NCBI GenBank assembly: GCA_038850285.1
Contig: JAWCMA010000006.1
Coordinates: 36,917-54,133 of the forward strand
Direction: 5' to 3'
Origin: Methanocellales archaeon
GTDB lineage: Archaea; Halobacteriota; JAWCLZ01
DNA: 17,217 nucleotides
The position numbers were made by a program, and so were the translations under genes. The notes below the pieces were generated by a model that was not told the DNA's origin, did not search any database, and was given only the letters and a program-made list of their open reading frames with translations. Shown in pieces: positions 2,406 to 16,928 of this stretch (position 1 is the stretch's first letter; every line of letters begins with the position of its first letter).

Positions 2406-4589
2406 TTATTCCAGTAGCTTGGATTGCTTGTATATTATCTTCTCCTCTTCCCCTTCCCCCATGCCAATTCCCCCCCAAACCTGCTGCAGAATCTTCCTCG
2501 CTATTTTCTCGCCAATGGCGGGCACCCTTGCTAATTCCTCAACACTTGCATTTCTAAGTGCTTCAAGATCGCGATAGCCTGAGTTATAAAGCATTCTAGC
2601 ACGCACTCTCCCTATATCCCTGAGCTGTATCAAGGGTAGAAGTTCAATTGCAGCTCCATATCTAAGCCGCTGCTCAAGTGCTCTCGCTAGCTTGCTAGCT
2701 GGGTGTTTAAGGTGCTTAGCGAGCTCTGCCAGTGCATGTGCCAGCCATTCAGCAGTCTCAGCAAGTGCTCTGATATCTCCAGGGCCGATGTTGAATCTCT
2801 TGGTAATAAGCTCCTCTTTTTCCTCGGATATCCAGCTTTCCAACATCAAAGCAGTTTTAACCTCGCTTAAATACCATTCATATTCCTCGCCATCAAATGC
2901 ACTTTTATGCTCCAGCAGCTCATGTTCTCTTTCAATTAATGCATTTAAAATCCAGTCATAGTCTTTACTGCGCAGGTAAAGGCGGCGCATATCAGGTGTG
3001 CTGCAAATAATATGCAGCAGAGCAAGAGTAGAAGGCTGCTTCGATTTACTCAAAGCTTTTATCATGATCGAAGCAGAGAGGGGATCTATGTAGAGCCTTG
3101 AAATCAAACTTCCAAGTATAGTTGGCGATAGAAATTCCCCTTGAACTATAATCATTTTCTCGCTTTCAAAGAAAGCGATTAATTTGCATAGCAATGGCTC
3201 GATTTTTATTCCTTTATCAAGTCGCTGAAAGCCAAAGAAAGTTGTCATTAGGAATTCCTGGAGCTCAGCCTTTGTACTTGCAAATCCAGTTGCTATTAAA
3301 GAGAGCACGTGAGTGCGGAGCGCTGGTTCTGAGCCAAGTTTGGAATATATCCTCTCTGGCTTGGCATTTATGTATTCCGCCATGAGCTTGAGAAGTTCAC
3401 TATGGCTCTTCGCTAAGAGCACTGCCTCGCCATAGGGGTCCAAGCTAGGTCTGCCAGCTCTACCTCCCATTTGCTTTACTTCAAGCACCGGGAGAGCTTG
3501 CGATCCAAAGTTTGGATCATAGCGCTTATATTCCTTAATTATCACTCGCCTTGCTGGTAGATTAAGCCCTGCGGCTAGTGTTGGAGTGCAGGCAATAATT
3601 TTAATTTTGCCTCTTCGAAAGCCATCTTCAACTATCTTTCTATGCTCAGCTCTTAAACCAGCGTGGTGAAAAGCAGCTCCTCCCACTAGGCAGGCTGCGA
3701 GTTTTCTGCAGATCTCAGTTTCAGCGGTTGCCTCAACTTCACTTGAAAGGTCTAGAGCTGAGGAGAGTTTTTTGCTTTTTAAAATCCGGCTTATTCTCAA
3801 GGCAATGCTCTCGGCATTTCTCCTGGTGCTGGTGAAGATGAGGCACTGCCCTCCCTCTTTAACTGTATCAAGCGCTAGTGAAATTGTTTCCTCTTTCTCC
3901 TCAAGCTCGATTTCTCTTTTATCCTCTTTGAAAAAAATCACTCTGCTGAAGAAAACTCCTTCTTTTAACTCCACTGGTCTGAAGTCGCTTACAAGCAGCT
4001 CAGCTTGGAGCCAAGAAGCAAGTTCCTCTGGATTGCCTATTGTTGCACTTAAAGCGATGATTTGAGCATTTGGATTTAGCTTCTTGAGCTTTGCAACTGT
4101 AACTTCAAGAGTGGGACCGCGATCTGCTTGGTCGATTAAATGGATTTCATCCACAACTATTACAGTTATTTCATTCATCCAAGGGGATTGATTGCGCAGC
4201 AGGGAATCTGCTTTTTCTGAGGTTGCAATTATTATATCATTTCTACCTAGCCATTCATCGCGTTTGTCAAAATCCCCAGTTGAGATTCCAATTTTTATAT
4301 TAAATATATTGAATTTTGAAAAATATTCATACTTCTCACTTGCTAGTGCACGCAGGGGGACTATGTAGAGCGTTTTCCCCCCTTTATTCAAAATCGAGTT
4401 AAGCATGGCGAATTCAGCTATCAAGGTTTTACCGCTAGCTGTGGGTATCGCAGCGAGAATATTTTTACCCTGGAATATTCCTAGTTTAACAGCTTGAGCT
4501 TGAGGTGGATATAGCTCGTTTATCCCTTGAGCTTCATAAAACTTTAATACTTCCTGCGGTAGATATTCATTTAACTCACTAATTTTCAT
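2406..4589 (-). CDS. hel308: Ski2-like SF2 DNA helicase Hel308 (Hjm)
   Basis: Q-motif LYPPQ, Walker A PTASGKT, PLRALASEK, DEIH, SAT, HHAGL, TPTLAAGLNLPARRV, QMGGRAGRP, C-terminal HhH (IGRVRARMLYNSG, VPAIGEKIA); 727 aa. Confidence 0.95.
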   Translation of the reverse strand: MKISELNEYLPQEVLKFYEAQGINELYPPQAQAVKLGIFQGKNILAAIPTASGKTLIAEFAMLNSILNKGGKTLYIVPLRALASEKYEYFSKFNIFNIKIGISTGDFDKRDEWLGRNDIIIATSEKADSLLRNQSPWMNEITVIVVDEIHLIDQADRGPTLEVTVAKLKKLNPNAQIIALSATIGNPEELASWLQAELLVSDFRPVELKEGVFFSRVIFFKEDKREIELEEKEETISLALDTVKEGGQCLIFTSTRRNAESIALRISRILKSKKLSSALDLSSEVEATAETEICRKLAACLVGGAAFHHAGLRAEHRKIVEDGFRRGKIKIIACTPTLAAGLNLPARRVIIKEYKRYDPNFGSQALPVLEVKQMGGRAGRPSLDPYGEAVLLAKSHSELLKLMAEYINAKPERIYSKLGSEPALRTHVLSLIATGFASTKAELQEFLMTTFFGFQRLDKGIKIEPLLCKLIAFFESEKMIIVQGEFLSPTILGSLISRLYIDPLSASIMIKALSKSKQPSTLALLHIICSTPDMRRLYLRSKDYDWILNALIEREHELLEHKSAFDGEEYEWYLSEVKTALMLESWISEEKEELITKRFNIGPGDIRALAETAEWLAHALAELAKHLKHPASKLARALEQRLRYGAAIELLPLIQLRDIGRVRARMLYNSGYRDLEALRNASVEELARVPAIGEKIARKILQQVWGGIGMGEGEEEKIIYKQSKLLE

Positions 4590-7199: not shown

Positions 7200-7265
7200 T
7201 ACATTTTTATATATTTTTTCCTGCCACTATTTTTGCTCTTTCCCAATACTGCTTTATATTTAAAA
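7200..7265. promoter_or_regulatory. Divergent promoter region for the small ORF and hisI
   Basis: Plus-strand TTTATATT at 7253-7260, about 20-27 nt before the hisI ATG. Minus-strand GGAAAAAATATATAAAAA around 7204-7221. Confidence 0.5.
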
Positions 7266-7279
7266 GGCTAGTAAAAAAT

Positions 7280-7654
7280 ATGAATGAAGTACTGCAGGAG
7301 GTAAATTTCAAGGATGAATTGATCACCGCGGTTGTACAGGATTTCAAAACCAATGAAGTACTAATGTGTGCCTTTATGAATAGGGAAGCCCTTGAGAAAA
7401 GCCTCTCAACAGGTAAAATGTGCTTCTACAGCAGAAGCCGCCGAAGACTATGGGTTAAGGGCGAGACCTCTGGTCATTATCAATATATTAAAGAGGTGAG
7501 AATTGATTGCGATGGCGATTCTCTTTTATTCAAGGTGGAGCAAATCAAAGCTGCTTGCCATGAAGGCTATCGCTCTTGTTACTTTCGCAAACTCGAGAAT
7601 GGGAAATGGAAAGTGGTTGAGCCAAAAATAATTCAAAAAGAGCACGATCAATAA
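7280..7654 (+). CDS. hisI: Phosphoribosyl-AMP cyclohydrolase
   Basis: VLMCAFMNREAL, YSRSRRRLWVKGETSGH, DCDGDSLL, ACHEGYRSCYFR signature motifs. Confidence 0.97.
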   Translation: MNEVLQEVNFKDELITAVVQDFKTNEVLMCAFMNREALEKSLSTGKMCFYSRSRRRLWVKGETSGHYQYIKEVRIDCDGDSLLFKVEQIKAACHEGYRSCYFRKLENGKWKVVEPKIIQKEHDQ

Positions 7655-7691
7655 TTAACTTTACTTTCTCTGCGCTCTAATTGATCTATTT

Positions 7692-7781
7692 CGCAAGATT
7701 TAAATGCAATTGTAGAGCTTATTTGAATAAAGACCTATTGAGCTGAGAAAGTGCTTAAAGCGACAGTTTATTTGAATAGAG
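7692..7781 (+). promoter_or_regulatory. Putative cdh operon promoter with two repeated operator-like sites
   Basis: BRE/TATA-like CGCAAGA-TTTAAAT (7692-7705). Direct repeat AGYTTATTTGAATARAG at 7716-7732 and 7765-7781. Confidence 0.45.
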
Positions 7782-7817
7782 TTAGTGACTTCTTCAATGG
7801 AGGAGGAAAATAGATTT

Positions 7818-10202
7818 ATGGCACCAAAGATTGAGGCAAAAAAGGAAATGAAATACGAAGTTGAGGGAATGCAAAACGTGGAGATAAAAATAGGCAAAAT
7901 CGAGGAGGAGGAAAAACCCTGGGAGCCAATGGGACCAACGCCAAAGCCAAGCGTTCTTGATCTGCGGAGTTGGGATCACCTTTTGCTTAAGAGATACAAG
8001 CCATTTTATGCACCCCACCAAGATTTCTGCAATCTATGCACAATGGGACCATGCGATTTAACTGGAAATAAAGAAGGCGCATGCGGATTAGATTTACAAA
8101 CCCAGAAATCTAGGATAGTGCTTGCCGCAGTTGGCATAGGCACCGCTTGTCATACTGGTCACGCTAGGCATATGGTGAACTACCTCTGCGAAACCTTTGG
8201 CGAAGATACGCCTATAAGCTTAGGTGTAAACGTAAATGTTGAAGCCCCACTTACGAGGCTAATTACAGGTATAAAGCCGAGAACCATTGGTGATCTTAAA
8301 GAGGTACTGGAATACATTGAAGAGGAATATGCAATAGTAATGGCAGCTCTTCATACAGGCCAAGAGGGTAGCTACTTAGACTTTGAATCCAAGTCACTGC
8401 ACCTTGGAATGCTTGATTTACTTGCACTTGAAGTTGCAGATATAGCTCAAATTTCAGCATTGAACTTCCCCAAGGCAGATCCCAATGCGCCTTTAATAAC
8501 CTATGGATATGGTAATATAGATACCTCGAAACCGGTGATCTTAGTAATCGGCCACAACGTGATACCAAGCACAGGTATAATAGATTATCTAGAGGCAAAT
8601 AATTTAATGGATAAAGTGGAACTCGCAGGAATATGCTGCACTGCTCACGATAACGCTAGATATAACAAAAAAGTTAAATACGCTGGATCACTCGCGCAGC
8701 AGCTTAGATTAATTAGAAGTGCGATTCCTGATGTCATCGTAACAGATGAGCAATGCGTGCGCACAGATGTATTTAAAGAGGCAAGCAAATTGGGAATAAA
8801 AGTTATAGCTGCCTCAGAAAAAATCTGCTATGGATTACCTAATAGAACTAAGGATAAACCCGAGGATATAATAAGAGATCTAATGGCAGGAGCACCTGGG
8901 TATCTAATCACCGATCCCAAAGTAGTAGGCCCAGTTGCAGTGAATGTAGCGATTGAGAATGCAAAGGTCAGGAAAACAAAGAATCAATTGATGAGCGATG
9001 AAGAATTCAAGAAATGGGTAACAGAGTGCACAAACTGCGGTAGCTGTACATTGGTATGCACCCATGGTTTGAGAATTGGCCCAGCGAATAAAGCAGCTGA
9101 GAAAGGAGATAACTCCAAGTTAATTGAACTATTAACTACTTGCATCTCTTGCGGTAAATGTGAATGGGAATGCCCCAAGAACATTCCCATCGTAGATGTC
9201 ATGATAAAAGCAGGCATAAACGAGCTCAGGAATGAAAAGGGATTTGTGAGAGCAGGTAGAGGTGCTATTGAAGATTCAGAGATACGCAAAGTTGGCTCGC
9301 CAATTGTATTAGGCACAATTCCAGGTATAATTGCATTCGTAGGCTGCCCAAATTACCCAGATAGCGCAGAGGCAGTATATAAGATGGCTGAGGAATTCTT
9401 GAATAGAAAATATATCGTGGTAGTCTCAGGATGCCATGCCATAGATATTGGAAGATATAAGAATGAGGAGGGCAAAACGCTTTATGAGAGATTCCCAGGC
9501 ACCTTTGATGCAGGTGGACTAGCAAATGTAGGCAGCTGCGTTTCAAACTCTCACATCGCAGGAGCTGCAATTAAAGTACCTAATATTTTTGCGATGCGGC
9601 CAATAAGGGCTAATTACGAGGAAATCGCGGATTACATTTTAAATAGAATAGGTGCGGTAGGCGTTTCTTGGGGAGCAATGTCTCAAAAGGCAGCTTCAAT
9701 TGCAACTGGCTTCAATCGGCTTGGGGTGCCAGTAGTAGTTGGCCCGCAGGGAGCTAAGTATAGAAGAAGCTACTTGGGAAGAAAGGATATAGCCGAGGAT
9801 TGGTGGGTCTATGACATCAAGGATAGCTCGAAAGTCCCAATCGAACCCGGTCCCGAGCACTTGCTATACATTGCTGAAACTTGGCAAGAAGCAATTGTGA
9901 AGATCGCTAGATTATGCATGAGACCTAATGACACCGATCGAGGAAGATCAATAAAACTATCGAATTACCTAGACTTGAGTGAGAAATACTATGGCAAGCT
10001 ACCGGATGACTTCCATCTCTTCGTGCGCTGTCCAACAGATCTACCAGTTGCTAGGAGAAAAGAATTACTTAGAGTGCTTGAGGAGAAATATGGCTGGAAG
10101 ATCGACCACGAGAAGATGAAGATCCTCGAAGGACCAATTAGAAAATTCGACGCCAGATTCAATCCAACTAACCTTGAGCGCTTGCTCAAGAAGAAAGCAT
10201 AG
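7818..10202 (+). CDS. cdhA: ACDS complex alpha subunit (Ni-CO dehydrogenase)
   Basis: MGPTPKP, B-cluster Cys (C-x2-C-x4-C-x9-C), C-cluster ligands GHN, GICCT, DEQC, GCPN, SGC, GSCVSN, SQKA lysine, and two ferredoxin-type motifs (CTNCGSCTLVC, CISCGKCEWECP). Start set at ATG 7818 after SD GGAGGAGG. Confidence 0.97.
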   Translation: MAPKIEAKKEMKYEVEGMQNVEIKIGKIEEEEKPWEPMGPTPKPSVLDLRSWDHLLLKRYKPFYAPHQDFCNLCTMGPCDLTGNKEGACGLDLQTQKSRIVLAAVGIGTACHTGHARHMVNYLCETFGEDTPISLGVNVNVEAPLTRLITGIKPRTIGDLKEVLEYIEEEYAIVMAALHTGQEGSYLDFESKSLHLGMLDLLALEVADIAQISALNFPKADPNAPLITYGYGNIDTSKPVILVIGHNVIPSTGIIDYLEANNLMDKVELAGICCTAHDNARYNKKVKYAGSLAQQLRLIRSAIPDVIVTDEQCVRTDVFKEASKLGIKVIAASEKICYGLPNRTKDKPEDIIRDLMAGAPGYLITDPKVVGPVAVNVAIENAKVRKTKNQLMSDEEFKKWVTECTNCGSCTLVCTHGLRIGPANKAAEKGDNSKLIELLTTCISCGKCEWECPKNIPIVDVMIKAGINELRNEKGFVRAGRGAIEDSEIRKVGSPIVLGTIPGIIAFVGCPNYPDSAEAVYKMAEEFLNRKYIVVVSGCHAIDIGRYKNEEGKTLYERFPGTFDAGGLANVGSCVSNSHIAGAAIKVPNIFAMRPIRANYEEIADYILNRIGAVGVSWGAMSQKAASIATGFNRLGVPVVVGPQGAKYRRSYLGRKDIAEDWWVYDIKDSSKVPIEPGPEHLLYIAETWQEAIVKIARLCMRPNDTDRGRSIKLSNYLDLSEKYYGKLPDDFHLFVRCPTDLPVARRKELLRVLEEKYGWKIDHEKMKILEGPIRKFDARFNPTNLERLLKKKA

Positions 10203-10214
10203 GAGGAGAGGTAA

Positions 10215-10727
10215 ATGGCGAAAGCTTGGAATTTAGCGGATGTAGCGGGACCGAAGCAAGCTAGAGTAACTAAGCCTGAGATTATAGCAGCCCTTGTGAA
10301 GAAAGCCAAGAAACCACTACTAGTAGTGGGCGCAGAAATACTGCGAGATGGAGTAATAGATAGAGTGATTGAGATAGGTAAAAAGGGCATACCAATAGCA
10401 GCCACAGCCCATACCATAAAAGCATTTTTAGAAAAAGGCTATACCCCAGCTTCAAGCGACTTAGGAGTGCACGAGGTAACCAACTTATTAAAAGATCCTG
10501 AGTGGAAGGGCTTCGATGGAAAAGGCAACTACGACATGGTAATATTCCTAGGAATAAACTACTACTTAGCATCGAGAATGCTATCCACACTCAAACACTT
10601 CGCCCCCCATTTAAGAGCTTACTCCCTTGATCGCTACTACCACGTAAATGCAGAGATGAGCCTAGATAACATCTTCGAAGACCAAAAATTCCTAGAAGCC
10701 CTCGATTTATTCATAAGCAAACTATGA
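10215..10727 (+). CDS. cdhB: ACDS complex epsilon subunit
   Basis: AGPKQA, KKAKKPLLVVG, LKDPEWKGFDGKGNYD, LSTLKHFAP, LDRYYHVNA. SD GGAGAGAGGT upstream. Position after cdhA. Confidence 0.95.
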   Translation: MAKAWNLADVAGPKQARVTKPEIIAALVKKAKKPLLVVGAEILRDGVIDRVIEIGKKGIPIAATAHTIKAFLEKGYTPASSDLGVHEVTNLLKDPEWKGFDGKGNYDMVIFLGINYYLASRMLSTLKHFAPHLRAYSLDRYYHVNAEMSLDNIFEDQKFLEALDLFISKL

Positions 10728-10781
10728 AGGCAAACTATAAAACAAAAAATAAATAATAGGAATAGAAGAAAGGCGGAGAAG

Positions 10782-12197
10782 ATGGCTGAGGAAAAAGAAG
10801 TATTCCCATTTGACATAAGCCCGATGTATGAAGGGGAGCGGATTCGAAAAGGCGAGATGTTCGTTGACTTAGCAGGACCGGAGTACAAGGGATTTGAACT
10901 AGTAGTATCGGCACCTATGGAGGAAGTTGAGGATGGCAAAGTAACCATCATTGGTCCAGATATTAAGGACATGAAAGAAGGCAGTGGTTACTCCTTTGCA
11001 ATGATCTATAAAGTGGCTGGAGAAATGGTAGAAAAGGACTTAGAAGGCATTATTGAAAGAAGAAACCATGACTTCCAGAACTATATACAGGGATTTATGC
11101 ATTTGAATTCAAGAGATGTAATTTGGTGCAGAATTAGTAAGGATGCCGTGAAAAAAGGCTTGAAATCCCTGGAGCAAATTGCCAAGGCAACAATGATGCT
11201 CTTTAAAAGTGAGATGCCCTTCATTCAAAAAATGGAGGCAACATATATAACTGATAAAGCTGAGATTGAGAAGCGAAGGCCAATGGCACAAGCAGCTTGG
11301 GACTGGAGAGATGCTAGAGCTAGAGGTTTAAATGAAGAGGATGTGGATACCTTCTATGGCTGCACCCTCTGTCAAAGCTTCGCACCAACTAATGTCTGCG
11401 TAGTCACCCCAAATCGCTATTCCCTCTGTGGAGCAATAGGTTGGTTCGATGGAAGAGCAGCTGCAAAGGTAGATCCAGAGGGCCCAAATGCACCAATTCC
11501 AAAGGGAGAGGTAATAGATCCAATCCTTGGGCAATATAGTGGAGTAAATGAAGCTGCAGTTAGATTAAGCGGTGGAGAATATAATAAGATAAATCTCCAT
11601 AGCTTCTTCGAGAGTCCGCATACTTCATGCGGCTGCTTCGAAGTCTGCGGTTTCTACATACCAGAGGTTGATGGAATAGGTTGGGTGGATAGGGATTATA
11701 CAGGTATAGCGGTGAATGGCTTGCCCTTCTCCACAATGGCAGGGCAAACAGGGGGAGGCAAGCAAATCATAGGCTTTCTAGGCGTAGGCATAGAATACAT
11801 GCGCTCCAAGAGATTCATCCAAGCAGATGGAGGTTGGTATAGAACTGTTTGGGTGACCAAGAGATTGAAGGAGAAAACCCAGGATTTCTGGCCACCTGAG
11901 ATGAAGGGGAAAATAGCTACCGATGAAGATGTAAAGAACTTAGAGGAACTTAAGGCATTTCTCAAGAAGGTAAACCACCCAGTGGTAACAGGGGTAATAA
12001 GACCAGTGGATGGCAAGAGAATAACCGAGGGCTGGCCATTTGAAGTAACCCCCGAGATAAAGCAAAAAGTAATTGCCTATATAGAGGAAACCGGGGGAGA
12101 AATAGATCTCGCGGTGGTGGAGAAAAAACTAGGCTTAACTGAAGCGCAATTCATGAAAGTAGTAGAAGTACTTCAAGCTGAGGGAATACTAGGGTGA
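10782..12197 (+). CDS. cdhC: ACDS complex beta subunit (acetyl-CoA synthase)
   Basis: FDISPMYEGERIRK, A-cluster ligands GCTLCQSFAPTNVC, SLCGAI and HTSCGCFE, plus GQTGGGKQ and QADGGW. Confidence 0.97.
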   Translation: MAEEKEVFPFDISPMYEGERIRKGEMFVDLAGPEYKGFELVVSAPMEEVEDGKVTIIGPDIKDMKEGSGYSFAMIYKVAGEMVEKDLEGIIERRNHDFQNYIQGFMHLNSRDVIWCRISKDAVKKGLKSLEQIAKATMMLFKSEMPFIQKMEATYITDKAEIEKRRPMAQAAWDWRDARARGLNEEDVDTFYGCTLCQSFAPTNVCVVTPNRYSLCGAIGWFDGRAAAKVDPEGPNAPIPKGEVIDPILGQYSGVNEAAVRLSGGEYNKINLHSFFESPHTSCGCFEVCGFYIPEVDGIGWVDRDYTGIAVNGLPFSTMAGQTGGGKQIIGFLGVGIEYMRSKRFIQADGGWYRTVWVTKRLKEKTQDFWPPEMKGKIATDEDVKNLEELKAFLKKVNHPVVTGVIRPVDGKRITEGWPFEVTPEIKQKVIAYIEETGGEIDLAVVEKKLGLTEAQFMKVVEVLQAEGILG

Positions 12198-12218
12198 AAA
12201 ATAAGATGAGGTGGAAAA

Positions 12219-12443
12219 ATGGCGGAGGAGAAAAAAGTATTAAAACTAACACTTAAGAAACCAGAAGCAGCACCAGCAGCACCAACCCCAGCGCCAGCAC
12301 CAACACCAGCAGTTAGACCAACTGTGGCAGCACCTGCACCAGCTGTAGCAGCGCCAGCGGCTGGAGGAGTGATAAAGTTAATTCTACAGAATGCTAAGAT
12401 ACACATCGACCAAGTAATAATCAAGAGGGAAGAGAAGAAGTGA
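12219..12443 (+). CDS. orf74: Ala/Pro-rich micro-protein resembling the detached C-terminal tail of CdhC
   Basis: Own SD GAGGTG (12208-12213) and ATG. Stop overlaps the cooC start (GTGA). Ends GGVIKLILQNAKIHIDQVIIKREEKK, like the terminal motif of typical archaeal CdhC. Confidence 0.85.
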   Translation: MAEEKKVLKLTLKKPEAAPAAPTPAPAPTPAVRPTVAAPAPAVAAPAAGGVIKLILQNAKIHIDQVIIKREEKK

Positions 12444-13195
12444 CTAGGATAATTGCCGTCACAGGTAAAGGTGGAACTGGGAAAACCGCGGTTTCCGCGC
12501 TATTGCTGAGATACTTGATTAAAAAAAATAATGCAAGAATCTTAGCAGTAGACGCGGACGCGGATTCCAATTTACCTGAAGCCCTTGGCGCTAATAATGG
12601 TAAAACAATCGGGGATGTGAAGGAAGTATTTTTAAGAGGGAGGCTAGATCTCCCGCCTGGAGTTGATAAAAGAGTTAGATTTGAGGGAATGGTCCACGAA
12701 GTCCTGAGGGAGAATGAGAAGTATGACTTAATAGTCATGGGCAGACCAGAGGGACCAAATTGCTATTGCTATACAAATGATATGCTGAGAGCAATATTAG
12801 ATAAAATCGTGAATAACTATAATTACGTGGTTATAGATACAGCTGCTGGACTTGAACATTTCAGCCGAAGGTTGATTCAACACATCGATATTCTCATAGT
12901 GGTAACCGATACCTCCAAGCACGGCTTGACCACAGCTCAGCGAATTAAAAAAATAGCCGAGGAAGTTAACATCAGGATTAATAAAATGTTTATCTTGGCT
13001 AATAAAGTGGATGAAGGCCAAGCAATAACTATAGCGCAATATGCAAAGCATTTGAGTCTGGAGGTAATAGGTGCTATTCCCTTTGATGAAGTGCTATTGA
13101 AATACGACCACCAAGGATTGCCTCTCTTGAATCTCCCCGATGATTCCATTGCGGCTAAAAAGGTTGAGGCAATAGCTAGAAAGATTGGGCTGTGA
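12440..13195 (+). CDS. cooC: CooC/AcsF-type nickel-insertion ATPase (MinD/ParA family)
   Basis: Deviant Walker A GKGGTGKT, VDADADSNL, MGRPEGPNCYC (CxC nickel site), DTAAGLEHFSR, ANKV. Located within the cdh operon. Confidence 0.93.
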   Translation: MTRIIAVTGKGGTGKTAVSALLLRYLIKKNNARILAVDADADSNLPEALGANNGKTIGDVKEVFLRGRLDLPPGVDKRVRFEGMVHEVLRENEKYDLIVMGRPEGPNCYCYTNDMLRAILDKIVNNYNYVVIDTAAGLEHFSRRLIQHIDILIVVTDTSKHGLTTAQRIKKIAEEVNIRINKMFILANKVDEGQAITIAQYAKHLSLEVIGAIPFDEVLLKYDHQGLPLLNLPDDSIAAKKVEAIARKIGL

Positions 13196-13199
13196 TCCT

Positions 13200-13415
13200 A
13201 TGACTAAAGTAACCGCTGAGGAAATTTTGAAAATCATTAGCGAACTGGAAATAGAGGAATTAAAAGGCATTGAAATGGAGGGAGACATAGAATTAGAACT
13301 CGAGTCCGAAGTTCTCATTCGGCAGATGGCTCCTCAAGTTCCTGAGACATTTGGAATGGAACTTTCAAGTGCTATGCAGCATTTATCAAATGCATTGAAA
13401 ATGATAGGCAAGTGA
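13200..13415 (+). CDS. orf71: micro-protein paralogous to the CdhD N-terminal region
   Basis: ATG 13200 lies 4 nt after the cooC stop. 24 of the first 36 residues are identical to the CdhD N-terminus (manual alignment). Confidence 0.85.
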   Translation: MTKVTAEEILKIISELEIEELKGIEMEGDIELELESEVLIRQMAPQVPETFGMELSSAMQHLSNALKMIGK

Positions 13416-13446
13416 GCTTGCCTTGAGCTTACCTTGAGGCTTGCAT
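13413..13446. repeat. Three imperfect 11-12 nt direct repeats
   Basis: TGAGCTTGCCT (13413), TGAGCTTACCT (13424), TGAGGCTTGCAT (13435). The first copy begins with the orf71 stop codon. Confidence 0.75.
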
Positions 13447-13479
13447 TAAATTTCAATAAAAAAGTTGTGAGGGAATTAA

Positions 13480-14829
13480 ATGGCAAAGATAAATGTAGCT
13501 GAGCTAATGAAAATCATGAGCGAGCTAGAGGTTGAAGAACTCAAAGGAGTGGATATAGAAGGAGATATTGAACTTGAACTTGAGAGCTCGGTGGTAACAC
13601 TTATGGCAGGGCTCTCGCCAGAGGCATTGCAAGCTCTTGGAAGCGAGCTAACGGAAGCTATGGCTCGGCTGCAAGCAGCTGCAAAAGCACTTGGCATACC
13701 AATTCCTCCACTCGCACCTCCAATTGCTCCACCAGTAGCTCCACCAGTAGCTGCACCCCCAGTAGCCCCCCCAATCGCACCCCCGAAACCGATTGAGCTG
13801 ATTAAAACCAAGTTCAGTGTTAAGCCTGAGAAGTATCCAATGCAAATTCAAGAAGTGGTATTAGGAGCAACTTCAAGCGATGGAGGCACCAGAAGTCATA
13901 CCATAAAACTTGGCGGGCAAAAGGCAATGCCCTATTGTATCTTCGACGATGCAATTCCCAATAGACCTCATGTAACGCTTGATGTATTTGATATGCCAAT
14001 GAGCCTTGCCAAGGCAGTTAGAGTTCACTACGAAGATGTAATGCAGAATCCTGCTGAATGGGCGAAGAAAGCTGTGGAGAAATTCAATGCAGACATGGTA
14101 ACTATACACCTCGTAAGCACTGATCCACTCATTAAAGACACCCCTGCTAAGGAAGCCTGCAAAGTAGTGGAAGAAGTACTGCAAGCAGTGAAAGTGCCAA
14201 TTGTAATAGGAGGCTCGGGCAATCCCAAGAAAGACCCAGAGGTACTTGAAAAAGCAGCTGAAGTTGCTGAGGGCGAGCGCTGCTTGCTTGCAAGTGCCAA
14301 TCTAAATATGGATTTCCCGAGAATCGCGGCTGCAGCTAAAAAATATGGGCACGTGATACTAGCTTGGACGCAGATGGATATAAATGCTCAAAAGGAGCTC
14401 AATCGAAAGCTTTTGAAAACATGCGGCATACCCCGCGAGGATATAATAATGGATCCCACGACCGCTGCGCTGGGATATGGACTGGATTATGCCTATACAA
14501 ACATGGAAAGAATGAGAATAGCTGGGTTAAAAGGCGATGCCGAGCTAGCATTTCCAATGTCATCAGGCACAACTAATGCTTGGGGCGCAAGAGAAGCTTG
14601 GATGACTTCCTCGCCTCTTGCCCAAGACTCAGACTGGGGACCGAGGGAATATAGAGGCCCAATTTGGGAGATAACCACGGGCATGACCCTTGCCCTAGCA
14701 GGTGTAGATCTATTTATGATGATGCATCCCGCAGCAGTGGCAGCGCTTAAAGAACTCACTCAATCTCTACTTGGGAAAATTGATGCAACTCAAGTTGATA
14801 TCAGCGACTGGGTGAGCAAGGAGGTTTAA
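13480..14829 (+). CDS. cdhD: ACDS complex delta subunit (small subunit of the corrinoid Fe-S protein)
   Basis: [83 protein letters not shown]. Acidic N-terminus and Pro-rich linker. Confidence 0.97.
13699..13786 (+). repeat. Coding repeat for the Pro-rich linker (APP[IV])n in CdhD
   Basis: Encodes [29 protein letters not shown] and includes an exact tandem GCTCCACCAGTA x2. Confidence 0.8.
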
Positions 14830-14831
14830 AG

Positions 14832-16244
14832 ATGAAGGTAAAAAGTCCGCTTGAGGTCTATCGCTATTTACCAGCCACAAACTGCACTAAATGCGGCCAG
14901 CCCACTTGCATGGCTTTCGCGTCTCAGATGATAGCTAGAGAGAGACCCCTTGAAGATTGCACTCCAATTCTCGAGGCAAAGTATAAAGCCAAATATGAAG
15001 AACTAAAGCGATTGCTAGCGCCGGAGATCAAGCAAATAACAATTGGCGTTGGAGAAACAGCGAAGAAGATCGGAGGGGAAGACGTACTCTATCGCCACGT
15101 CTTAACCTTCTTCAATCCACCGCCGCTTGCATACGATGTCTGGGATACAATGGATGAAAAAGCACTGGAGGAAAGAGTTAAGAAAATAATTTCCTTCCAG
15201 AAATTCTACGTGGGTGAATTCCTGAAGCCAGATATGATCGCTGTGAGATCCACTTCGAATAATCCAGAGAAATTCGCAGCTTGCGTTAAAAAAGTCATGG
15301 GCATGACAAACTTGCCTCTTATATTGATGTCCCTAAACCCAGCTGTGCTTGAAGCTGGACTTAAGCTAGCTGGTGACAAGCGTCCATTGGTCTACGCGGC
15401 TAATAAAGACAACTGGAGGAAAGTCGCGGAACTAGCCAAAAAATACCGCGTACCCGTAACAGTTTCAGCTCCCGGTGATTTAGATATGCTTGCTTCCCTC
15501 GCGAAAACCCTCTTAGGCTTGAATATCGAGGACATAGTGCTCGATCCAGGTACCTATTGCCATGGAAAGCAGTTGAAACAAACCTTTGAGAACTTCATAA
15601 AACTTAGAAGGGTAGGAATAGTTGAGGGACAGCGGGATATAGCATTTCCAATAATGTGCATCCCAATGACAGCTTGGCTTACTGAGAAAAACCCTCTTGA
15701 AGGAGCATATAGAGAAACAGAGATTGCAAATATATTCACCGTGAAATATGCAGATTTACATGTGCTGCATAGCCTAGAGCCATATTCAATAATTCCCATA
15801 TTATATCTCAGGAGAAATATCTACACAGATCCCAGAACACCTGTGCAGGTAACACCTGGTTTGAAAGAAACAGGTACGCCAACTAGAAAATCGCCTGTTT
15901 TCGTGACCACCAACTTTGCTTTAACCTTCTACACTGTTGAGAGCGATATTTCCTCGAATAAGATAGATAGCTATATAGTGGTCGTAGATACAGGCGGCTT
16001 AGGCGTGGAACCTTCAGTTGCAGGGGGGCAGTTGACAGCGAGTAAAATAAAAGAAGCAGTGGAATTCGCCAAAGTCAAGGAAAAAATAGATCACAACACC
16101 CTGGTGATCCCAGGTTTAGCCGCTCGATTAAAGGGCGATTTAGAGGATGCCACTGGAATGACAATATTAGTAGGCCCAACTGACTCAGGTAGAATACCAA
16201 GTTGGATGGAAACCCACTGGAAGAAAATAATGGGAGGAACCTAG
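14832..16244 (+). CDS. cdhE: ACDS complex gamma subunit (large subunit of the corrinoid Fe-S protein)
   Basis: LPATNCTKCGQPTCMAFA...C [4Fe-4S] motif, IGGEDVLYRH, IVLDPGT, NIYTDPR, TTNFALTFYTVESD, IPGLAARL, VGPTDS. Confidence 0.97.
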   Translation: MKVKSPLEVYRYLPATNCTKCGQPTCMAFASQMIARERPLEDCTPILEAKYKAKYEELKRLLAPEIKQITIGVGETAKKIGGEDVLYRHVLTFFNPPPLAYDVWDTMDEKALEERVKKIISFQKFYVGEFLKPDMIAVRSTSNNPEKFAACVKKVMGMTNLPLILMSLNPAVLEAGLKLAGDKRPLVYAANKDNWRKVAELAKKYRVPVTVSAPGDLDMLASLAKTLLGLNIEDIVLDPGTYCHGKQLKQTFENFIKLRRVGIVEGQRDIAFPIMCIPMTAWLTEKNPLEGAYRETEIANIFTVKYADLHVLHSLEPYSIIPILYLRRNIYTDPRTPVQVTPGLKETGTPTRKSPVFVTTNFALTFYTVESDISSNKIDSYIVVVDTGGLGVEPSVAGGQLTASKIKEAVEFAKVKEKIDHNTLVIPGLAARLKGDLEDATGMTILVGPTDSGRIPSWMETHWKKIMGGT

Positions 16245-16254
16245 ATTTTAGATT

Positions 16255-16282
16255 AACTCCCTTTAATTTTCTTCCCTTTTTT
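16255..16282 (+). terminator. Probable pyrimidine/oligo-T terminator of the cdh operon
   Basis: CTCCCTTTAATTTTCTTCCCTTTTTT directly after the cdhE stop, consistent with archaeal U-rich terminators. Confidence 0.55.
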
Positions 16283-16288
16283 ATAATT

Positions 16289-16438
16289 ATGGCAAAGACA
16301 TATAGATGCCAAGGATGTGGATTTGAAATTCGCACAGGGCCATATGCTTGGATGCTTGAAATTGAAGAGGAACTGGAGAAAACAGGTAAACTGCTCTGCC
16401 CCCGCTGTAGAAAGAGCAATATGGTAGAGGGGGAGTGA
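16289..16438 (+). CDS. Small CxxC...CPxC zinc-ribbon/rubredoxin-like protein (49 aa)
   Basis: MAKTYRCQGCGF...LLCPRCRK has two Cys pairs. Stop is 7 nt before the next ATG. Confidence 0.75.
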   Translation: MAKTYRCQGCGFEIRTGPYAWMLEIEEELEKTGKLLCPRCRKSNMVEGE

Positions 16439-16445
16439 GGAAAAA

Positions 16446-16928
16446 ATGAGTAAGAAAACTTGGCAAGAAAAATTAATGAATACCAAAGGGCTACCTAAAG
16501 TGGAGATAATCAGCTCTAAAATGGCTAGTAAATGGGGGACTAAAGCAGGGGATACCTTGGTAATTCCTGCACCAATTGAGGTTGATGCGATTATGAGAAA
16601 AGTTCCAAATGGAAAGCTTATTACTATTAATGAAATCCGTAGAGCACTCGCCAAGAAGCACGCTGCCACAATTGCTTGCCCAATTACCACTGGGATTTTC
16701 GCTCGCATTGCCGCTGGAGCTGCGGAAGAAGCAAGGATAAAAGGAAAAAACAAGGAAGATATAACCCCCTACTGGCGAACGCTAAAGGCAGGTGGAGTGA
16801 TAAATGAAAAATACCCAGGCGGGGTAGAGGTTCAGAAGAAACTTTTAGAGCAAGAGGGACATAGAGTTATCCAAAAGGGCAAAAAATATTTGGTTGCTGA
16901 TTTTGAAAAATACTTAGTAAATTTATAA
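16446..16928 (+). CDS. MGMT DNA-binding-domain family protein (alkyltransferase-like, no PCHR cysteine)
   Basis: IMRKVPNGKLITINEIRRALA (HTH start), TPYWRTL at the PCHRV position, QKKLLEQEG C-terminal motif. Confidence 0.75.
   Translation: MSKKTWQEKLMNTKGLPKVEIISSKMASKWGTKAGDTLVIPAPIEVDAIMRKVPNGKLITINEIRRALAKKHAATIACPITTGIFARIAAGAAEEARIKGKNKEDITPYWRTLKAGGVINEKYPGGVEVQKKLLEQEGHRVIQKGKKYLVADFEKYLVNL

Follow-up and report, generated by a model that had tools for sequence, protein, structure and literature searches.

Most of the acetate that is converted to methane passes through the acetyl-CoA decarbonylase/synthase complex (ACDS), an assembly of approximately 2 MDa. What holds this assembly together is only beginning to be understood. 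For Methanosarcina acetivorans, the main text of a 2026 preprint (PMC13370988) proposes the termini of CdhA, CdhC and CdhD as the ACDS hub. There, a helix of CdhD (residues 45–68) drives hexa- to octamerisation and provides an alpha-helical coiled-coil core; a fusion of CdhD 43–88 to green fluorescent protein oligomerises, while L50/57/64 mutants (Leu-to-Ala or Leu-to-Asp) do not. CdhA 1–43 and CdhC 401–470 are put forward as tethers, at the stage of a proposal, and a single high-confidence crosslink, CdhA E15 to CdhC K452, joins the two terminal regions (PMC13370988). In the passages of PMC11474084 that deal with the Methanosarcina CdhC C-terminal extension, these approximately 75 residues are unresolved in cryo-electron microscopy, and CdhC with a truncated C-terminus can reportedly be isolated as a subunit. 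In plants and animals, microProteins as defined in PMC6003976 are small paralogues of a single domain, which modulate the complexes of their larger multidomain relatives. Here we describe a 17,217-nucleotide stretch of the genome of a Methanocellales archaeon (GCA_038850285.1, contig JAWCMA010000006.1; hereafter the window), whose plus strand carries at 7818–16244 the gene order cdhA-cdhB-cdhC-orf74-cooC-orf71-cdhD-cdhE. A Pfam search named the six large operon products and left orf74 and orf71 without a family. We consider it probable, together with the roles of the two small genes discussed below, that this locus is a normal ACDS operon of the archaeal type, and that separate small genes here encode two of its three terminal hub extensions.

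Sequence comparison indicates that orf74 (12219..12443, plus strand; 74 residues) is the C-terminal extension of CdhC in detached form, which replaces the CdhC tail and does not add a part. Of all sequences in the PDB, M. thermophila CdhC matches it best (9c0s_E, residues 418–470 of 472; E 0.0047), and on the NCBIfam CdhC models it covers positions 424–462 of 464 (NF003379; E 1.6e-4) and 431–460 of 460 (TIGR00316). In a survey of 41 related genomes, it matches the C-termini of frames of 447–499 residues in nine (G004, G012, G014, G018, G022, G028, G032, G034 and G038). Because the PDB, NCBIfam and fused C-terminal matches all point to the CdhC tail, orf74 is best viewed as a relocated part rather than an extra subunit. 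The protein consists of an N-terminal basic strand, KKVLKLTLKK (12231–12260), an Ala/Pro linker (12261–12362) and the basic terminal motif GGVIKLILQNAKIHIDQVIIKREEKK (12363–12440); a low-complexity linker and a basic terminal motif thus lie directly upstream of cooC. We scored such motifs with 12-column profiles built from other families, the window's own being left out, against an approximate set of the proteins encoded in the window's genome (1328 proteins; 372,663 sequence windows). The terminal motif of orf74 reached 27.8 bits with the CdhC-tail profile, the best of the 372,663. BLAST comparison of orf74 with CdhA (E 0.57), CdhD (E 17) and CdhC (E 0.33) returned only low-complexity stretches and the letters MAEEK.

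The same split recurs elsewhere. Short frames of the orf74 type directly follow cdhC in seven related genomes besides the window's own (G000), so that the split tail is found in G000, G001, G003, G008, G009, G019, G029 and G039, which belong to three families, and in the named locus L104 (Ca. Methanoliparum thermophilum). In a second survey, of 80 named cdhD loci gathered with full-length CdhD, 43 showed the tail motif; 42 of these carry it fused to CdhC, and in L104 alone it is separate. The remaining 37 loci showed no tail motif inside the stretch examined. The N-terminal strand, KK-x-L-K-L-x-L-K-K, is present in all seven split genomes with complete sequence (7/7), and fused tails are devoid of it.

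At the junction, the covalent link to CdhC is absent. The TGA stop of cdhC (12195–12197) is followed by a second in-frame TGA (12207–12209) and by the Shine-Dalgarno sequence GAGGTGG, which lies 5 nucleotides (nt) before the ATG at 12219. Stop codons separate cdhC from the micro-open reading frame (micro-ORF) in 8/8 split junctions, and GAGGTG stands 5–8 nt before the micro-ORF start in 7 of them. CdhC and the small protein share one frame in the window, G003, G029 and G039, and stop-codon readthrough joining the two was considered and rejected: the stops are two TGA codons here and TAA in G003, G029 and G039, the frames differ in G009, G019 and G008, and a Shine-Dalgarno site precedes each micro-ORF in all eight junctions. 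With a Shine-Dalgarno site of its own before the micro-ORF and a stop codon that changes from lineage to lineage (TGA or TAA), readthrough is improbable and need not be invoked.

CdhC itself (acetyl-CoA synthase beta subunit; 10782..12197, plus strand; 471 residues) is without the usual Ala/Pro tail; Pfam CdhC (2e-61) and ACS_CODH_B_C (3.8e-76) together cover residues 8–402. In an eight-sequence alignment, CdhC in all eight split genomes of the related set, the window's included, ends in an extra domain of approximately 50 residues, here at 11994..12194 on the plus strand, which occupies the place of the linker and tail in other CdhC proteins. The split tail and this lineage-specific domain co-occur perfectly in the genomes seen. 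An AlphaFold2 model of the last 90 CdhC residues (predicted local distance difference test, pLDDT, 69) shows a hairpin and three helices (E24–28, E31–35, H43–56, H62–69, H73–86) in an arrangement that may be winged-helix-like. A Foldseek search with this model gave a best E of 0.23, small winged-helix domains occupying ranks 3–4 with probabilities of 0.96–0.98, none significant. One of them, at rank 4, is the CdvB winged-helix domain (PDB 2xvc_A; E 0.41, probability 0.96, root-mean-square deviation 2.4 over 51 columns; not significant), and the CdvB C-terminus (NCBIfam NF041008) matches the CdhC domain with an E of 0.0033, far under the cut-off. In PDB 2xvc, the CdvB winged-helix domain binds a CdvA peptide. 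The CdvB likeness is a weak lead as to how orf74 might dock, not a sign of family membership. Complex prediction for the last 90 CdhC residues with orf74, run without controls, gave 0.11 and 0.06 against a mark of 0.32, which is neutral on docking.

Several observations concern further copies of these elements. cdhC and orf74 resemble each other in DNA around their points of translation initiation (10772–10805 and 12209–12242), sharing GG-x-GGA...ATGGC-x-GAGGA-x-AA-x-A-x-AAGTATT and thus encoding MAEEKEV and MAEEKKV; the likeness is confined to the window's family and could reflect a copied start region or purine-rich convergence. A single cdhC and a single cdhD were found in the window's assembly. 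A further copy of orf74, 88% identical, stands at the start of contig C37 (G000:C37:1-207) and is followed by DUF134-like and Lon-like genes, not by cooC or cdhD. A second cdhA (G000:C19:20258-22582), 80% identical over 746 residues and with the same N-terminal motif, reaches its contig end. Together, the two pieces resemble another cdhA-(B-C)-tail cluster that lacks cdhDE and is interrupted at the near-identical cdhC. In a genome of the same genus, locus L054 (G001:C1, minus strand, 7224–9044) carries a cdhC that is 93% identical together with a micro-ORF; neither cdhA and cdhB upstream nor cooC and cdhD downstream were found within the 15 kb examined. This micro-ORF has a TTG start and runs in two frames, with a break inside its Thr/Pro linker that may be an assembly error in a repeat.

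The second small gene, orf71 (13200..13415, plus strand; 71 codons), is a tandem duplicate of the first 70 or so codons of cdhD, that is, a hub module without catalytic domain and an extra hub piece. BLAST aligns it to CdhD residues 1–72 (13480–13695) with 36/72 identical residues (50%; E 1e-19), it matches positions 4–69 of 442 in NCBIfam NF003375, and the profile of the CdhD N-terminus ranks it second of 372,663. No relative of orf71 other than CdhD was found in the window's genome. Alignment and AlphaFold2 modelling divide the module into a short helix, an acidic block (VEEL-x-GV-x-IEGD-x-E-[IL]-E), a stretch of variable sequence and a second, long helix of amphipathic character. The orf71 monomer model, which is of low confidence (pLDDT 61), places helix 1 at residues 6–15 and the amphipathic helix 2 at residues 47–68 (13338–13403, plus strand). 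In cdhD (13480..14829, plus strand; small subunit of the corrinoid iron-sulfur protein, CoFeSP; Pfam CdhD 4.5e-83 from residue 125), helix 2 lies at 13615–13695 and is followed by a Pro/Ala linker (13696–13791) and then by the triosephosphate isomerase (TIM) barrel. orf71 ends a few residues past helix 2, at the point where CdhD enters this linker. It stops at residue 71 and has no TIM-barrel domain (Pfam PF03599), its 76-residue frame matching no Pfam family. Helix 2 aligns with that of 13 CdhD N-termini, hydrophobic spacing being kept while the Leu-zipper letters differ, and also with the M. acetivorans CdhD 43–88 construct sequence as given in the main text of PMC13370988. The divergence of orf71 from its cognate CdhD falls mostly between the acidic motif and helix 2.

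Stand-alone modules of this kind also lie between cooC and cdhD in G003, G019, G029, G039 and G032, and they occur in 5/80 named loci: L059 (Methanosarcinales ex4572_44), L060 (GoM-Arc1), L061 and L064 (two Methanosarcinaceae metagenome-assembled genomes) and L074. The module profile retrieved 63 proteins from a library of 1.84 billion; 33 of these have at most 90 residues and several end right after helix 2, although fragments are possible among them. In a tree, each stand-alone copy groups with the CdhD N-terminal module of its own lineage. The label 'small' changes six times on this tree, at least four of the changes being forced by well-supported branches, and a single origin was recovered in 0/200 bootstrap trees. 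These data suggest that stand-alone modules arose independently at least four times. Repeated duplication or continuing gene conversion may have caused the grouping by lineage; in both cases the copy follows its partner. At only 51% identity to each other, orf71 and the corresponding G003 protein are both intact and of equal length, with motif and helix 2 kept; the L061 and L064 copies are recent, because they are 87–90% identical to the 5' end of their cognate cdhD. Across other genomes, the split tail and the stand-alone module occur independently of each other.

Three further proteins stand apart from these copies. P0017 (82 residues, on a 536-base contig) joins the first half of a CdhD N-terminal module to a CdhE-type Fe-S domain (Pfam PF04060), and could be a deletion variant or the product of a chimeric contig. 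At locus L053 (G008:C1, in a genome of 1.1 Mb), cdhD on the minus strand (3098–4264) encodes 389 residues with helix 1 and a degenerate acidic block and no helix 2; the CdhC tail is also split off there, and the hub may be built differently. P0038 (1,846 residues, eight matches) was dismissed as a chance likeness, since it is a bacterial repeat protein with 'LPEVHIEGDTEIC' units.

The initial annotation had placed one motif on four operon products, and all four peptides were found in the sequence: in CdhA (7857–7910, core EVEGMQNVEIKIGKIEEE), orf74 (12372–12425), orf71 (13248–13301) and CdhD (13528–13581). The CdhA core belongs to an N-terminal extension of residues 1–37 (7818–7928, plus strand), and its conservation extends to 20 distinct N-termini of CdhA from other families. 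The extent to which they form one motif differs between pairs. Within families, the top two places among 372,663 go to members from the window under the profiles of all three blocks, and orf71 and CdhD are truly homologous over 72 residues. Across families, the CdhC-tail profile scored 9.1 bits on CdhA, with 50 of the 372,663 as high, and the CdhA profile on orf74 was equalled by 95. The CdhD profile on orf74 gave a modest result (134 as high) and the CdhC-tail profile on CdhD a poorer one (1,739); no cross-family hit entered the top 10 of any scan. Alignment of the profiles with hhalign gave P 2.7e-4 for the CdhA N-terminus with the CdhC tail, P 0.11 for the CdhC tail with the CdhD N-terminus and P 5.7e-4 for the CdhA with the CdhD N-terminus, the latter through a stretch just upstream of the motif; these P values are rough, the profiles being short, and the motif register was chosen by eye. 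A six-column version, L-x-[NG]-[VA]-x-I, was discarded as too short, 44 to 1,140 of the 1,328 proteins scoring equally well. We infer that the CdhA N-terminus and the CdhC tail share the pattern L-x-N-[VA]-x-I-x-I-[GD]-x-[VI]-[IV], at a level that is above chance and real but modest. The CdhD/orf71 block has only six positions in common with it (L-x-[GN]-V-x-I), a likeness that is marginal and unproven.

The charges are clear. The core has a net charge of +3 to +4 in 32/32 distinct CdhC tails, -2 to -5 in 20/20 CdhA sequences and -4 to -8 in 45/45 CdhD sequences. The complementarity of a basic tail with acidic CdhA and CdhD motifs is therefore conserved and robust, and the earlier description of orf74 as basic and of orf71 and CdhD as acidic holds. 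The published crosslink can be placed on this pattern. Residue 15 of Methanosarcina CdhA in the PDB is the E of L-E-S-V-Q-I (L14-E15-S16-V17), and residue 452 of a 470-residue Methanosarcina CdhC (L125) is the K of F-K-N-A-K-I. E15 and K452 would therefore occupy equivalent variable 'x' positions of two like motifs, the position of K452 being mapped through L125 and not through M. acetivorans CdhC. If this mapping holds, a crosslink at equivalent positions is as expected from direct pairing of the motifs.

The explanation that we favour, and regard as probable, is that orf74 is a detached tail, orf71 a copy of the core module, and that both have a role in the hub; homologies, gene order, conservation, recurrence and charge are observed, and from them we infer binding. 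orf71 would join the coiled coil of CdhD as a protomer devoid of CoFeSP. It could thereby lower or tune how many CoFeSP units each core bears, or else cap or merely fill the core, and would still present an acidic motif for docking. The basic C-terminal motif of orf74 would bind the acidic motifs of CdhA, and perhaps those of CdhD and orf71, as the fused tail presumably does. More speculatively, its N-terminal strand might dock on the acidic CdhC C-terminal domain and so replace the lost covalent link; the perfect co-occurrence of the two and the weak winged-helix likenesses of the domain offer only hints of this.

A number of points weigh against this explanation. The CdhA profile on CdhD and the CdhD profile on CdhA are equalled by 15,162 and 10,596 of the 372,663, respectively, the orf71 model contains no strand, and no clear Shine-Dalgarno site precedes orf71. 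Stand-alone copies are rare: in a phylum sample the module occurs in 187/401 genomes, of which 6/187 have a short frame among the matches listed, and at most five more genomes have a second module match beyond these, while in one further genome, G222, both matches are full-length cdhD. In family f7 (G009, G019, G029 and G039), G009 has the split tail and no stand-alone module, while its three relatives carry one; the module can therefore be dispensed with. No match to the CdhD module came from G001 and G002, the two genomes of the same genus. On the supporting side, evidence from RNA is weak: a metatranscriptome run from a hot springs metagenome (X1) yielded two contigs identical to 12277–12425, inside orf74, and to 13613–13768, but these are short, DNA carry-over is possible and the run may come from the window's own source. 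X1 contains only 0.06 of the sampled words, and the uncovered rest of 10700–14900 is uninformative; a second run (X2) gave only low-complexity pieces from other organisms.

In the initial annotation, the four peptides were taken as one homologous beta-strand motif that builds a mixed beta-sheet core, with orf74 and orf71 as two added empty hub subunits. The 12-residue pattern beyond chance in CdhA and the CdhC tail, the alignment of the CdhA N-terminus just upstream of the CdhD motif, the complementary charges and the E15-K452 crosslink between equivalent motif positions (PMC13370988, main text) all speak for such a view. However, the CdhA and CdhD/orf71 profiles fail to recognise each other, the tail and the CdhD N-terminus align with a P of only 0.11, and the words 'motif' and 'strand' do not appear in the main text of PMC13370988. 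The only core element tested there is a helix: the core shown by experiment is an alpha-helical coiled coil of CdhD 45–68, whose counterpart in orf71 the initial annotation did not mention, and the helices-only orf71 model gives no sign of a beta-strand-like character. As to added subunits, orf71 does qualify as a hub module without catalytic domain, but orf74 is the CdhC tail and not an addition, so that the hub elements rise by one. We find this model as a whole quite improbable. The idea of the termini as a hub fares well, being what the main text of the preprint proposes for CdhA, CdhC and CdhD of M. acetivorans.

A different role for orf71 would be that of a dominant-negative microProtein that caps or poisons CdhD oligomerisation and leaves ACDS smaller or disassembled under some conditions. 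It fits the definition given in PMC6003976, being a lone interaction module whose relative is a larger multidomain protein, and it keeps helix 2, lacks everything downstream and arose repeatedly. Yet orf71 lies inside the operon, its ATG 4 nt past the cooC stop and 64 nt separating it from cdhD, with no sign of separate regulation, and an inhibitor transcribed together with its target would be produced every time the target is. Our data do not separate capping from co-assembly, and we hold a poisoning function to be unlikely. That both micro-ORFs are functionless leftovers of gene fission and partial duplication, untranslated or neutral, would agree with their absence from most cdh operons, with the recent L061 and L064 copies and with the lack of a clear Shine-Dalgarno site before orf71. 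It is hard to reconcile with an orf71 counterpart that has diverged to 51% identity yet remains intact, equal in length and complete in motif and helix 2, with a split tail that keeps start, stop, Shine-Dalgarno site and both terminal motifs across three families, or with the rank of the orf74 motif under a profile from other families, and we consider it very unlikely. Lastly, orf74 might work with the CooC-type ATPase in inserting nickel into the A-cluster and not as a tether, as its stop overlaps the cooC start and the order is kept in all split loci. This adjacency is inherited, however, since the fused tail is the end of cdhC, which precedes cooC, and the tail is also found in the second cluster fragment (G000:C37) with no cooC after it; a nickel role therefore seems highly improbable.

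Returning to a detached tail and a copied core module, operons with a free tail or an enzyme-free core module are natural dissections of the hub and offer minimal constructs for binding and assembly assays. Split operons predict that the tail acts in trans and suggest that core occupancy is tunable. A tail encoded separately next to cdhC can escape annotation pipelines and phylogenies in which CdhC is scored as 'lacking the C-terminal extension'. A far-reaching generalisation would be that Archaea repeatedly evolve catalytically empty copies of the CdhD core module that mix into the coiled-coil core of the approximately 2 MDa ACDS and set the numbers of CoFeSP, carbon monoxide dehydrogenase (CODH) as well as acetyl-CoA synthase, that the L-x-N-[VA]-x-I blocks of CdhA, the CdhC tail and CdhD are charge-paired docking strands, and that orf74, in the split lineages, is a free bivalent basic staple linking acidic partners. 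Taken as a whole this is doubtful; if true, it would mean that a central machine of carbon fixation has a stoichiometry dial encoded in the genome, and the second cdhA/cdhC set without its own cdhDE in the window's genome could share one core.

The remaining operon genes are conventional. cdhA (CODH alpha subunit; 7818..10202, plus strand) matches Pfam Prismane (2.9e-63), and from the 7818 start NCBIfam TIGR00314 matches residues 9–57; a start at ATG 7818 fits because residue 5 of the closest solved homologue (PDB 8riu_A) aligns to CdhA residue 8. cdhB (epsilon subunit; 10215..10727, plus strand) matches Pfam CO_dh (5.3e-41). cooC (12440..13195, plus strand) encodes a cooC/acsF-type P-loop nucleoside triphosphatase (Pfam CbiA 3.1e-18, ParA 4.2e-10), a nickel-insertion accessory gene whose GTG start overlaps the orf74 stop and whose place between cdhC and cdhD is conserved in related loci. 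cdhE (CoFeSP large subunit; 14832..16244, plus strand) matches the Pfam CdhD family (8.9e-143) and FeS (5e-13). Directly after it lies a small ORF (16202–16438, plus strand; probable ATG inside) with two CxxC pairs, zinc-ribbon-like and without Pfam family, followed by a 160-residue protein with a DNA-binding domain of the 6-O-methylguanine-DNA-methyltransferase type (16446–16928). In loci L059 (3130–4699) and L060 (2880–4404), of the GoM-Arc1/ex4572 type, approximately 1.5 kb between cdhB and cdhC, taken up by an inserted gene, matches no gene of the window.

The hub concept is thus already in print (PMC13370988), in a main text that does not include small genes. A search of the full-text literature found no description of micro-genes in cdh operons; the extended data and supplements of the preprint, which may show terminal conservation, lay outside this search. 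When the Methanosarcina CdhC tail is compared to orf74, both have the terminal motif G-G-[IV]-K-x-x-L-K-N-A-K-I-x-I-[DG]-x-[VI]-I-[IV]-K, a low-complexity linker and a place directly before cooC. They differ in that orf74 is a separate 74-residue protein with its own Shine-Dalgarno site and an added K/L strand, and that the accompanying CdhC ends in a three-helix domain. Similarly, orf71 matches residues 1–72 of CdhD, including an amphipathic helix equivalent to 45–68 in the coiled-coil region of M. acetivorans CdhD, but it stands alone, has neither linker nor TIM barrel and hence brings no CoFeSP. With the microProteins of plants and animals, as PMC6003976 defines them, orf71 has in common that it is only the oligomerisation module of a larger multidomain protein. 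In contrast to these, it is prokaryotic, it is located in an operon directly before its target, that target belongs to a metabolic megacomplex and not to the transcription factors, and any interference is putative.

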